From contig JAQULM010000001.1 in NCBI GenBank assembly GCA_028718605.1, positions 519,006 through 583,005 of the forward strand: a stretch of 64,000 nt of DNA, read 5' to 3'. Position 1 is the stretch's first letter, and every line of letters starts with the position of its first letter. Shown piece after piece: positions 10,317 through 44,415 of the stretch. The notes under the pieces were generated by a model. It had not been told where the DNA came from. It saw only the letters and a program-made list of their open reading frames with translations, and searched no databases. This stretch comes from Patescibacteria group bacterium. Lineage in GTDB: Bacteria > Patescibacteriota > Patescibacteriia > UBA10025 > JAHIVO01. The translations under genes were made by a program, and so were the position numbers.

Positions 10317-10958
10317 ATGCAATATGACATCCTCACAATTTTCCCTAATGCCTTCGTTTCTTACTGCAATGAGAGCATCCTGAAGCGTGCCCAAGACGGA
10401 AAGCATGTTTCGATTCGCATCCATGATATTCGCCGGTTTACGACGGACAAGCATAGAACGGTCGATGACCGCCCGTATGGCGGCGGACCCGGCATGGTAA
10501 TGAAGCCTGAGCCGATCTATCGGTGCCTCAATGCAATCAAGCGAAAAAAGAAATCACGGACGATTCTCTTGAGCGCTCGCGGAAAAACATACACCCAGCG
10601 CATTGCGAAGCGGCTCGCAAAGTATGACCAGCTCCTGTTTATTTGCGGGCACTATGAAGGCGTTGACGAACGCATATCGAAATACGCAGACGAGCAAATC
10701 TCCATCGGCAACTATGTACTGACTGGCGGGGAGCTTCCCGCACTCGTCATCATCGACAGTGTCACCCGATTACTGCCAGGCGTGCTCGGAGATCCCCGAT
10801 CAACGCATGATGAATCTTTTTCGCCCTGCGACACATACCGCGAATATCCCCAGTACACACGGCCTGAAGTGTTCAACGGGATGCGGGTTCCGCGTATTCT
10901 CCTCTCGGGCAACCATTCGAAAATTGCCTCCTGGAAGCGTACGAAATCCCGCACTTGA
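10317..10958 (+). CDS. trmD: tRNA (guanine37-N1)-methyltransferase
   Basis: MQYDILTIFP…GGGPGMVMKP…YVLTGGELPALV SPOUT-knot motifs. Confidence 0.85.
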   Translation: MQYDILTIFPNAFVSYCNESILKRAQDGKHVSIRIHDIRRFTTDKHRTVDDRPYGGGPGMVMKPEPIYRCLNAIKRKKKSRTILLSARGKTYTQRIAKRLAKYDQLLFICGHYEGVDERISKYADEQISIGNYVLTGGELPALVIIDSVTRLLPGVLGDPRSTHDESFSPCDTYREYPQYTRPEVFNGMRVPRILLSGNHSKIASWKRTKSRT

Positions 10959-11202
10959 CACTCCTTGGGATATGCCCTACAATGAATGGGCAATAATACA
11001 TAGTCGAAATCTTTGCTAAGTTAACAGTAAAGACGAAAGGAACGCCTAGCGGTACACACTACTTTGCTTCCACAATCAGCTGAAAATGTAGTTTTGTGTC
11101 CCGTTATAGCATCGGGATTTTTTGTTCCCTCCTTGATCGACTGCGTGAGGAATGAACCTTAACAACCGGAATCGTGATAAGAAGAAACGTCAATTTATTT
11201 TT

Positions 11203-12692
<1,490 letters not shown>

Positions 12693-12898
12693 CAAGGAGA
12701 TATGGTCGGCGTAGCCGACCTAGGTCGACTATGGTGCCTTCGGGCACCGTAGCTGTACATTGGAAACGACAATCTCAAATGACGTCTTCTTCTTATCACA
12801 ATCCTGGTTTGTTAAGGATTTGACATGGAGGCAGCCATACATGACGTTGGTTGTTGCTTTTTCGGTACGTTTATACTATTCTTGGTGATGAAGCGTAT

Positions 12899-12975
12899 GG
12901 GCGCGTAGCTCAGTTGGCTAGAGCGCGTCACTGATAATGACGAGGTCCCTGGTTCGATTCCAGGCGCGCCCACCA
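12899..12975 (+). tRNA. tRNA-Ile (anticodon GAT)
   Basis: GGGCGCGTAGCTCAGTTGGCTAGAGCGCGTCACTGATAATGACG…GGTTCGATTCCAGGCGCGCCCACCA; full cloverleaf; CCA encoded. Confidence 0.9.
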
Positions 12976-12979
12976 AGCA

Positions 12980-13700
12980 GGTTTTAAAAATTCTGCAAAT
13001 GCCGTAGGCATTTTGCCGAGGTAGCTCCCCGTCATTCGACGGGGCAGGCAGTGGTAGAGTCCCGTATTTATGCCGAGGAATAATATGCCGAGGTAGCTCA
13101 GTGGTAGAGCGAAGGACTGAAAATCCTTGCGTCGCCAGTCCGATTCTGGCCCTCGGCATAAATACGGGATAAACTCCGGACTGAAAATGCCGATTTTCTC
13201 TGCGAGCCATGCGAGCAGACAGAAAATCGAGCATCCCGAGTGCAACGAGGGATCTTCTCCTTGCGTCGCCAGTCCGATTCTGGCCCTCGGCATCTGCGGA
13301 GATTTTTTTAAAGTCGAGGTAGCGAAGTGGGCCGAGACCACGAGTGAAGCAAACTGCTTCGCTTCACGAGGAGTCGAGGCGGGCGAGACGATGCGGGAAC
13401 CACCGTCGAGCCCCGGAAGAGCGAAGGACTGAAAATGCCGATTTTCTCTGCGAGCCATGCGAGCAGACAGAAAATCGAGCATCCCGAGTGCAACGAGGGA
13501 TCTCGTCGCCAGGGAGCTTGCCCTGAGCGAAGCCGAAGGGATTCTTGAAATCAATAGTTCAACCAAATGGTGAAATCCGCCGCAGCTTCGCGAAGGCGGA
13601 TGGCCCTCGGCATCTTCGTGGGATAAACTCCGGACTAAAAAAATAACAAGCGTGAAACATTGGTGAATGCGACGCACGCTTGAAAAAACACCCCAAAAAT
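12980..13700 (+). repeat. mosaic of tRNA-Phe fragments and duplicated inserts surrounding one intact tRNA-Phe
   Basis: A 5' fragment GCCGAGGTAGCTC…AGTGGTAGAG split by a 22-nt hairpin insert (13015-13076). A 3' half copy TCCTTGCGTCGCCAGTCCGATTCTGGCCCTCGGCA (13258-13292). TGGCCCTCGGCA again at ~13611. An identical 78-nt repeat GGACTGAAAATGCCGATTTTCTCTGCGAGCCATGCGAGCAGACAGAAAATCGAGCATCCCGAGTGCAACGAGGGATCT at 13178-13255 and 13426-13503. GGGATAAACTCCGGACT repeated after the tRNA copies. Confidence 0.6.
13087..13158 (+). tRNA. tRNA-Phe (anticodon GAA); unusual C at position 55 of the T-loop (TCCGATT); no encoded CCA
   Basis: GCCGAGGTAGCTCAGTGGTAGAGCGAAGGACTGAAAATCCTTGCGTCGCCAGTCCGATTCTGGCCCTCGGCA. 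Acceptor, D, anticodon and T stems all pair. Confidence 0.7.
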
Positions 13701-42060: not shown

Positions 42061-42160
42061 ATGCGTGGTCACTATTCATTATCAACTGATTAAAAAAAGC
42101 CAGTATACAAATACACTAGCTTACCTGCAGTATAGAATACCCGATTAAAAATGGCAAGGC

Positions 42161-43892: not shown

Positions 43893-43924
43893 ACATTGCT
43901 TTCAGTATATACGAAATGCCCAAA

Positions 43925-43955
43925 TAACTAAAAAGGGGCGGTATGACCGCCCCCT
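43925..43955 (-). terminator. rho-independent terminator (minus strand) ending the candidate ncRNA, 33 nt upstream of the rnhB start
   Basis: Minus-strand reading: GGGGGCGGT-cata-CCGCCCC followed by TTTTT. A TATATACT -10-like box for rnhB lies between this hairpin and the rnhB ATG. Confidence 0.5.
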
Positions 43956-44292
43956 TAGTATAATTACTTTTTGAGCGTCAACCGCCCCGCGGCTATTTTC
44001 CTACAGAGCGTCCGCCCTTGCGGGCAGGCACTATGATCTAATGGAGCATAGCCGTTTGGCTTTTTGCGTTGGCTCTCAAAAAGCAATTTTCCTTCACCAC
44101 CTCGTGGTTAAACTCTCGTTCTCATTGCTGAGCGCAAAAGGATAACCTTTTTGTTTTTTTTTGGAAAAACTTTTCCGAACCTGCCAACAACAGGTTCTCT
44201 GGCAGTGAAGAAAGGTTGCTTCCGATATTTCTAGTATTCGAAACAACCTTCCGGCACCGCCACACTGTGCATAACTTGTTAAAATTCATTCT
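43925..44292 (-). ncRNA. candidate ~365-nt non-coding RNA of unknown class, with consensus promoter and intrinsic terminator
   Basis: Minus-strand TTGACA (+44323-44328), 17-nt spacer, TATACT (+44300-44305). No ORF longer than 13 aa. Intrinsic terminator at 43925-43955. No match found to RNase P P4, tmRNA or SRP domain IV motifs. Confidence 0.35.
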
Positions 44293-44415
44293 GAAAACAG
44301 TATAGCATGGTTTTTCATAAATGTCAATAGTCTTTTTCGGCTAATGTTCAACAAAATTCAAAAATTCAAAAAGATACCTGTTTTAACACACCAATGGGTT
44401 TTCCACAGCCAATAG

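Follow-up and report, generated by a model that had tools for sequence, protein, structure and literature searches.

A previously undescribed structured RNA, probably an independent gene, between cmk and rnhB in one group of Patescibacteria

A predicted non-coding RNA (ncRNA) of about 366 nt was found on the minus strand of the spacer between cmk and rnhB (44292 to 43927) in a 64,000-nt stretch of a Patescibacteria group bacterium genome, hereafter the window (assembly GCA_028718605.1, contig JAQULM010000001.1, positions 519,006 to 583,005), where it is bracketed by a promoter and a terminator. The locus is probably an independent gene of a previously undescribed structured ncRNA, about 345–390 nt long, which is present in eight lineages of one Patescibacteria group and constitutes a new RNA family. 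The feature is beyond chance because its conservation and covariation were found in eight lineages and not in a single sequence. Checks against Rfam, against a cmk untranslated region and for covariation were all favourable to the stand-alone ncRNA proposed in an initial annotation of this DNA.

Locus, promoter and terminator

The Pfam matches recorded for the identical public contig (Cytidylate_kin2 and RNase_HII) establish the flanking genes as cmk and rnhB, as first annotated. The signals which delimit the predicted transcript are as follows.

44322..44327, minus strand: −35 hexamer TTGACA, unchanged in 7/7 members with upstream sequence
44299..44307, minus strand: extended −10 TGcTATACT (TATACT at 44304-44299); TATACT and the extended −10 are unchanged in 8/8 members
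44292, minus strand: predicted transcription start, an A 7 nt past the −10, placed by the spacing rule
43956-43932, minus strand: terminator hairpin of 11 pairs (7 G-C), then a T-run, ending about 35 nt before the rnhB ATG (43892)

The promoter, with a 17-nt spacer, 11 of 12 consensus matches and an upstream TG, was the top promoter-like site in the 4 kb scanned. The initial annotation had described the same TTGACA-N17-TATACT arrangement on the minus strand, with coordinates that were off by 1, and the GC-rich hairpin and U-tract that it had placed upstream of rnhB were recovered as the hairpin and T-run listed above. The fold energy of the predicted RNA is −144 kcal/mol, compared with −99.6 ± 6.0 kcal/mol for dinucleotide shuffles (z = −7.5).

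Members, synteny and conservation

Contigs of relatives were fetched, and Joint Genome Institute (JGI) metagenomes were scanned with a pattern derived from the most conserved hairpin, after which an nhmmer filter left eight distinct members; about 65 of the 75 metagenome pattern matches, together with the one viral match, were unrelated sequences. A search of genome contigs with RnhB returned only a distant Chromatiales match. PNPase, NusA and RnhB of the window match, with complete identity, proteins of a Patescibacteria group bacterium metagenome-assembled genome, and the nearest other RnhB proteins to that of the window were only about 56% identical. The seven members besides the window are uncultured Patescibacteria lineages.

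Window: 43927-44292, minus strand
L003: 4627-4971
L004: 4478-4858
L012: 1066-1455
L073: 1347-1693
L074: 1189-1570, minus strand
L058: 5452-5800, minus strand
L031: 4362-4751, minus strand

The RNA lies upstream of rnhB on the same strand in 8/8 members and downstream of cmk wherever upstream DNA was recovered, within a syntenic block of rpsO, an NYN gene, pnp, cmk, the RNA, rnhB, a methyltransferase gene, yraN and nusA. The proteins flanking the RNA are 53–79% identical to those of the window. At the DNA level, the identity of the RNA (67–77%) can be set beside that of the rnhB and cmk coding DNA (62–66%) and of nusA (70–72%); the spacer is, therefore, under at least the constraint of its neighbours, since its identity matches or exceeds theirs. 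In distant relatives from the candidate phyla radiation (CPR) that have the rnhB-methyltransferase-yraN-nusA block, no such RNA was detected at the site by the model search, and the region upstream of rnhB consists of an 84-nt gap (L093 and L094) or of unrelated sequence (L091).

Conserved fold and covariation

Helices were sought by an all-against-all column scan of an eight-sequence MAFFT alignment of the whole RNA (A5), and sub-regions of each member were folded separately, which gave one architecture throughout. The pair counts include the pseudoknot, and the controls were slid partners and 500 shuffles. In alignment A5, 92.9% of cells were paired (39–48% when slid) and 19 of 57 pairs had changed on both sides (3–7 when slid), and 0/500 shuffles reached the observed value. 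In the 5′- and 3′-domain alignments, which were fitted to two domain covariance models and are hence biased towards structure, 96.3% of cells were paired (39–54% when slid) and 11 of 21 pairs had changed on both sides (1–2 when slid) for the 5′ domain, and 96.9% of cells (38–47%) and 16 of 33 pairs (1–4) for the 3′ domain, with the observed value reached by 0/500 shuffles in each. The structure is to be expected only in the minus-strand transcript, because several G-U pairs are invariant. Conservation and covariation in related genomes, a check named in the initial annotation, were strongly positive. The elements of the fold, all on the minus strand, are listed from 5′ to 3′.

44266..44292, minus strand: 5′ leader of 27 nt, conserved in sequence, with no supported pairing
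44213..44265, minus strand: 5′ hairpin S0/P2, variable in sequence, a hairpin in all members
44201..44212, minus strand: P1 5′ strand UUCUUCACUGCC, pairing with 44090-44101
44177..44197, minus strand: hairpin Pa, with covariation in 5/6 stem pairs and the loop GUUGGC (44188-44183)
44163-44176, minus strand: small variable hairpin Px, absent in L004; in L012 and L031 a longer hairpin takes its place
44148-44162, minus strand: invariant A-rich linker AAAAYAAAAAGG
44106..44147, minus strand: hairpin Pb, stem kept, length and sequence variable
44090..44101, minus strand: P1 3′ strand GGUGGUGAAGGA, preceded by ACGAG
44059..44084, minus strand: hairpin Pc, GCUUUUUG/CAAAAAGC, with the loop GCCAAC (44073-44068)
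43990..44054, minus strand: long hairpin Pd, with compensatory changes in all 7 outer pairs

P1, a 12-bp long-range helix (UUCUCUACUGYY/GRUGGURGAGRA) which encloses hairpins Pa and Pb and the invariant A-rich linker, ranked first in the column scan; 97.9% of its cells are paired, and compensatory changes were found at 5 pairs. The loops of Pa (GUUGGC) and Pc (GCCAAC) form a 6-bp kissing helix (114-119/271-276; 93.8% paired) that joins the 5′ and 3′ domains, and this contact is drawn from the complementarity of the two loops in all members, with exchanges of G-C to A-U and of C-G to U-A or A-U. The apical helix of Pd (CUGCC/GGCGG) is invariant and includes a U-G pair and a bulged A. The peripheral stems (Px, Pb apex and Pd apex) probably accept insertions around a fixed core, to which P1, the junction purines, the A-rich linker, the kissing loops and the Pd apex would belong. 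The A-rich tract claimed from the single sequence was located in the linker, whereas the two internal hairpins named with it (CCACGAGGTGG; GGCAG…CTGCC) differ from the conserved pairings, in which GGUGG and CUGCC are the two strands of the long-range helix and GGCAG is part of hairpin Pa.

On the minus strand there are three copies of the heptamer CAAAAAG (44148-44154 in the linker, 44060-44066 in the Pc 3′ strand and 43966-43972 just before the terminator apical loop), each of them complementary to the one CUUUUUG present in Pc (44077-44083). These repeats hint at exchangeable pairings, or at A-minor or triplex contacts, that the transcript may adopt.

The RNA ends in a terminator module, present in 8/8 members, whose parts are given below.

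43927..43988, minus strand: terminator module, four regions and then a U-tract
43988-43981, minus strand: region 1, GGGGCGGU, a near repeat of region 3
43977-43973, minus strand: region 2, CGCUC
43952-43948, minus strand: region 3, GGGCG
43942-43935, minus strand: region 4, ACCGCCCC, next to the U-tract

Two folds are open to the module, a local 3:4 hairpin and a long nested one (1:4 with 2:3). The 2:3 helix is paired in 40/40 cells with 2 compensated pairs, and in L003, L073 and L004 a strong stem is present only in the nested version; the small Pe hairpin (1:2) was less well supported than this nested helix and was set aside. In both folds a GC-rich stem abuts the U-tract, and no anti-terminated state was seen between them. 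A terminator/antiterminator switch was rejected, as both 3′ folds terminate.

A separate transcription unit or a leader of rnhB

Apart from the RNA promoter, rnhB has a −10-like element of its own.

43904..43909, minus strand: rnhB −10-like TATACT, outside the RNA, 11 nt before the ATG

TATACT or TATAAT lies 7–12 nt before the rnhB ATG in 8/8 members, whatever the distance to the terminator, and has the same form as the −10 box in the RNA promoter and in the nusA promoter; no clear −35 was seen. These boxes imply a predicted rnhB mRNA that would be leaderless or near-leaderless throughout the group. The terminator and rnhB are as little as about 20 nt apart, but the distance grows to about 140 nt in L004 and to about 500 nt in L074. 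Moreover, in L003 the cmk stop is followed by a cmk terminator before the RNA promoter begins, and this promoter is unchanged wherever upstream DNA was recovered, so the region is more than a cmk 3′ untranslated region; had it been only that, the initial annotation would have fallen. A separate transcription unit is favoured by the invariant promoter, the cmk terminator of L003, the rnhB −10 box, the variable spacing and the distant relatives without the RNA, taken together, and the adjacency to rnhB is then preferably seen as a by-product of synteny. The extra non-coding DNA between the RNA terminator and rnhB amounts to about 500 nt in L074 (690-1189, minus strand) and about 140 nt in L004 (4860-5000), and no convincing open reading frame (ORF) was found in these two stretches.

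The best-surviving alternative, which we nevertheless regard as unlikely, is a cis-acting leader (riboswitch-like, or a protein- or RNA-sensing attenuator) of the rnhB-methyltransferase-yraN(-nusA) operon, whose large structured domain would respond to a signal and set the read-through into rnhB. The position of the RNA immediately 5′ of rnhB on the same strand in 8/8 members would suit a leader, as would the terminator near the rnhB start in most members, the alternative pairings (S0:S1 versus P1, and 1:2 + 3:4 versus 1:4 + 2:3) and the large structured non-coding region that a sister GC-rich lineage also has 5′ of rnhB. However, a strong stem is held at the U-tract in both 3′ conformations, so that no anti-terminated state is apparent; rnhB has its own −10 box 7–12 nt from the ATG in every member; and spacings of about 20 to about 500 nt speak against a leader. 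On general knowledge, a low-abundance repair nuclease should also get by with a promoter much weaker than this consensus one, and the entire pnp-cmk-RNA-rnhB-nusA block is syntenic, which makes the adjacency little informative.

As for the independent gene, the RNA would be released as a stable transcript and act in trans, and its likeliest role would be that of an RNA scaffold or of a partner in a protein complex rather than of an rnhB leader, a preference that follows from the −10 element of rnhB and from the termination of both 3′-end folds.

The sister lineage mentioned above is GC-rich and Kerfeldbacteria-like. Its conserved non-coding region 5′ of rnhB differs from the RNA, is about 450 nt long and shows compensatory changes; the positions are as follows.

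L009: 2338-4190 (a gap of 1.85 kb)
L010: 3148-5000
L011: 1-288
L013: 1-605
L014: 1059-1489
L015: 2066-2507

This region had no Rfam match. Homology to the RNA was considered and rejected, as neither nhmmer nor either of the two covariance models found anything; the region may be a second RNA or an unrecognisably diverged homologue.

Further along the block, nusA has its own conserved promoter (CTTGCC-N17-TATACTG), followed directly by a conserved, covarying hairpin and a U-tract just before the nusA start.

Window: 42097-42157, minus strand, nusA promoter and hairpin
L003: 6640-6732
L004: 6610-6698
L012: 3128-3227
L058: 3707-3811

This hairpin looks like a putative 5′-proximal attenuator, possibly for NusA autoregulation.

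Candidate DnaA boxes at the RNA promoter

The classical DnaA-box consensus is TTATNCACA, and two sites of this kind flank the RNA promoter.

44399..44407, plus strand: upstream DnaA-box-like 9-mer TTTTCCACA, opposite to the RNA, about 115 bp before the predicted start
44266..44274, minus strand: DnaA box TTATGCACA at +18, in the orientation of the RNA

The upstream site, which reads TTTTCCACA in the window, matches TTATCCACA perfectly in 6/6 relatives with upstream DNA, where it lies at −102 to −116, while the +18 site is strict in 6/8 members and has one mismatch in L003 and in L031. Strict TTATNCACA matches occur at these two sites only in the locus of each relative (1.8–10.6 kb), and the sole other strict match in the 64 kb of the window is inside the 16S gene; none of the eight rnhB loci that lack the RNA (about 47 kb) has a strict DnaA box. 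The two 9-mers are reverse complements of each other, and the fifth base of the downstream copy varies (G, A or C) without compensation upstream. Arms of an RNA or DNA stem were, therefore, rejected, and a protein site is preferred to a helix. This arrangement suggests regulation of the RNA promoter by DnaA through candidate boxes at about −110 and +18. The likeliest effect of DnaA at the two boxes would be repression through promoter occlusion or looping, an effect to which the +18 site points, and the output of the RNA would then track the replication-initiation state.

The locus was also considered as oriC and rejected, there being only two boxes, no switch in GC skew or gene strand and no dnaA in the window. 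Cumulative GC skew declines almost continuously over the 64 kb, and every gene between 29 and 49 kb has the minus-strand orientation.

A motif shared with the 16S leader

The 5′ leader of the RNA contains a 16-nt motif that recurs upstream of the 16S gene.

11150-11165, plus strand, and 44276-44291, minus strand: shared 16-nt motif GAATGAANNTTAACAA, in the 16S leader and at +2 to +17 of the RNA
44291-44276, minus strand: leader motif stretch GAATGAATTTTAACAA, also in the 16S leader of this genome

Exactly 2 copies of GAATGAANNTTAACAA are present in the window (0.04 expected by chance). The 16S copy lies 35 nt upstream of mature 16S; in the processing stem of leader and trailer it serves as the 5′ strand, paired with about 12806-12830. 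A duplex between the RNA 5′ leader and the 16S 3′ trailer was rejected, as its energy (−18.3 kcal/mol) is no better than that of shuffled sequences (−18.4 ± 2.8 kcal/mol). The motif may be a factor-binding or processing signal common to the RNA 5′ end and the 16S leader.

The consensus GYTCTTTAANA for BoxA, the NusB/NusE site, is gammaproteobacterial (PMC5725501). GAATGAANNTTAACAA agrees with it at 7–8 of the specified positions, which falls short of a clean match; a gammaproteobacterial consensus may not be that of CPR bacteria. The window has GAATTTTAACA, with T at BoxA position 4, and the relatives have ACTCTTGACAA or ATTCTTGACAA; in Nus antitermination, the Escherichia coli loss-of-function allele C4T/T6C alters the C at this same position. 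A second BoxA-like sequence, AAATCTTTGCTAAG, occurs at about 11010-11024, about 25 nt past the 16S promoter (TTGACA-N17-TACAAT, about 10957-10981), and this one, nearer the promoter than the shared motif, is the better candidate for an rRNA-leader BoxA.

The 16S gene (window 11200-13160) is followed by tRNA-Ile and tRNA-Phe, and no 23S rRNA was found in the remaining 51 kb, from which the rRNA genes are taken to be unlinked. Unlinked rRNA genes have been reported for many CPR genomes.

Weight of the evidence and a possible role

Several points weigh against an independent, trans-acting RNA. A location immediately 5′ of rnhB and on its strand, as in 8/8 members, is also the signature of a cis leader, and it is uninformative in genomes as syntenic as these. 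The two ends of the RNA are predictions, and the DnaA-box reading draws on motif identity and position only. The comparison comprises eight sequences, several of which are closely related (L003, L073 and L074), and the shuffle control ignores phylogeny, so that the shuffle statistics overstate independence. Nearest-neighbour energies, moreover, prefer pairing of the P1 5′ strand with the upstream purine-rich segment just past the leader in 8/8 members, by 1.5–12 kcal/mol. Although energy favours this S0:S1 pairing, its covariation is no better than that of the controls, and it was rejected as the conserved pairing for the 5′ strand of P1; P1 is taken as the evolutionarily supported fold, with the S0:S1 hairpin as a possible co-transcriptional or alternative conformer.

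A bolder proposal, to which we give somewhat less credence than to the cis leader, is that of a large catalytic or protein-scaffolding RNA with tertiary structure, confined to one Patescibacteria group and gated by DnaA through the two boxes around its consensus promoter, which would couple the replication-initiation state to nucleic-acid metabolism (RNase HII, YraN or NusA, or rRNA maturation). Here rRNA maturation is proposed as a target because of the motif common to the RNA and the 16S leader. If true, this would place the RNA in a new class of structured RNAs, one linked to the cell cycle of minimal-genome bacteria.

Known RNA families and coding potential

With Rfam 15 at gathering thresholds, the 16S and tRNA genes were the only matches in the window, and five related loci yielded none. 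At the looser limit of E ≤ 10, the region of the RNA in the window and the loci of three relatives gave only terminator-driven noise, that is, sub-threshold matches which differed between loci, of which the top one was sraA (26.5 bits versus a gathering score of 56); no RF00010 match was present among them. No tRNA or transfer-messenger RNA (tmRNA) was found by ARAGORN, which covers permuted tmRNA forms, in the region or in ten loci. Signature sequences were sought for RNase P (CR-I, CR-IV and CR-V), tmRNA, signal recognition particle (SRP) RNA and the T-box, and none was consistently present in any member. The best matches to CR-I (GAGGAAAGUCC) have 3–4 mismatches in all 8 members and those to CR-V (ACAGAANNCGGCUUA) at least 4, with no P4 equivalent. 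The tmRNA T-arm motif is absent and no candidate tag frame is conserved among the members; the SRP RNA domain IV or GGAA tetraloop motif is inconsistent among them and has no Rfam match; and the T-box sequence (AGGGUGGNACCGCG) has at least 3 mismatches in every member, its GGUGGU segment being the P1 3′ strand. A helix joining the 5′ and 3′ ends was found neither by the all-against-all helix scan nor by RNAalifold. A 6S-like rod with a closing stem likewise did not emerge, as the consensus fold is multi-domain with a free 5′ leader and no Rfam match. These Rfam, ARAGORN and motif results agree with the first impression from the sequence that RNase P RNA, tmRNA and SRP RNA could not be matched here.

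A highly diverged housekeeping RNA (RNase P RNA, 6S RNA, tmRNA or SRP RNA) that the Rfam models had missed is, on these grounds, improbable. The length of 345–390 nt would suit RNase P RNA and tmRNA, and a consensus promoter with a strong terminator is typical for abundant stable RNAs. In addition, CPR bacteria are reported to have aberrant RNase P RNAs, and RF00010 thresholds had to be lowered to find the copies in 10/35 circularised CPR genomes (Lui et al. 2021, PMC8172020). Against this, no RNase P, 6S, tmRNA or SRP match was present at E ≤ 10 in four members and ARAGORN was negative in all loci, while the matches to CR-I, CR-V, the T-arm and SRP domain IV have 2–4 or more mismatches in nearly all members. 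The unpaired 5′ and 3′ ends leave no RNase P P1, 6S closing stem or tmRNA acceptor stem, and the site lacks the RNA in distant relatives that share the rnhB-nusA block.

The initial annotation was wrong in finding no ORF longer than 13 codons, since the sense strand of the RNA has ORFs of 55 aa (ATG 44289), 50 aa and 40 aa (TTG 44086, after a GGAG-like sequence). An mRNA or dual-function RNA for small proteins encoded by the 55-aa ORF or the 40-aa TTG ORF is hardly credible and was rejected, because, even though the 40-aa ORF of the window has a counterpart in L073 that is equal in length and identical at 24/40 residues, the ORFs are not conserved in the relatives: the 5′ ORF (MNFNKL...) ranges from 8 to 55 aa, lacks its ATG in L074, L004 and L031 and has substitutions with no concentration at synonymous positions, the internal ORF is broken by a frameshift between the close relatives L003 and L073, by a stop inside the L074 insertion and by a frameshift in L012, and the conservation is explained instead by compensatory base-pair changes.

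Significance and comparison with known systems

Few large bacterial RNAs have intricate folds backed by covariation, and for most orphan classes the function is unsettled. Patescibacteria genomes are very small (the contig here is of 651 kb), and their biology is largely obscure. The retention of a non-coding block of about 520 bp that holds a consensus promoter and an RNA at least as conserved as its coding neighbours, therefore, implies an important function. The candidate DnaA boxes offer a concrete link between the RNA and the replication cycle, and the two covariance models built here provide a means to chart the RNA family across metagenomes.

Among cell-cycle RNAs, CcnA of Caulobacter crescentus is an ncRNA that base pairs with the ctrA and gcrA mRNAs (PMC8959179). 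The likeness to CcnA is one of analogy without homology, in that synthesis of the RNA seems tied to the replication or cell-cycle machinery, and the link to DnaA would here follow from the boxes alone. Terminator-based leaders such as the T-box and riboswitches resemble the RNA in lying 5′ of a gene on the same strand and in having an intrinsic terminator and competing helices, whereas the RNA has no T-box sequence, Rfam match or antiterminator state, its spacing to rnhB is variable and rnhB has its own −10 box. 6S RNA and Ms1 also come from stand-alone genes with a strong promoter and a terminator, as would suit an abundant regulatory RNA; however, the RNA is not a rod with a central bubble, lacks a closing stem, is about twice as long as 6S RNA and matches no such Rfam model. 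Type A RNase P RNA (RF00010), the diverged CPR forms of Lui et al. 2021 included, is similar in length and likewise combines a long-range helix and a pseudoknot-like tertiary helix with helices that vary in length, but the RNA described here differs in its unpaired termini and in having no CR-I or CR-V, no P4 equivalent and no RF00010 match.

The RNA most resembles the orphan large structured RNAs raiA, OLE, ROOL and GOLLD, although it belongs to none of these and matches none of their Rfam 15 models. Like them, it is a long multi-helix RNA with long-range or pseudoknot-type contacts, strong covariation, variable peripheral stems and a narrow phylogenetic range, and it shares with raiA a separate-looking transcription unit beside a conserved gene. 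OLE, ROOL and GOLLD are larger than the 345–390 nt found here, and the present RNA is distinguished from all four in being found in Patescibacteria only and in having a promoter flanked by candidate DnaA boxes.

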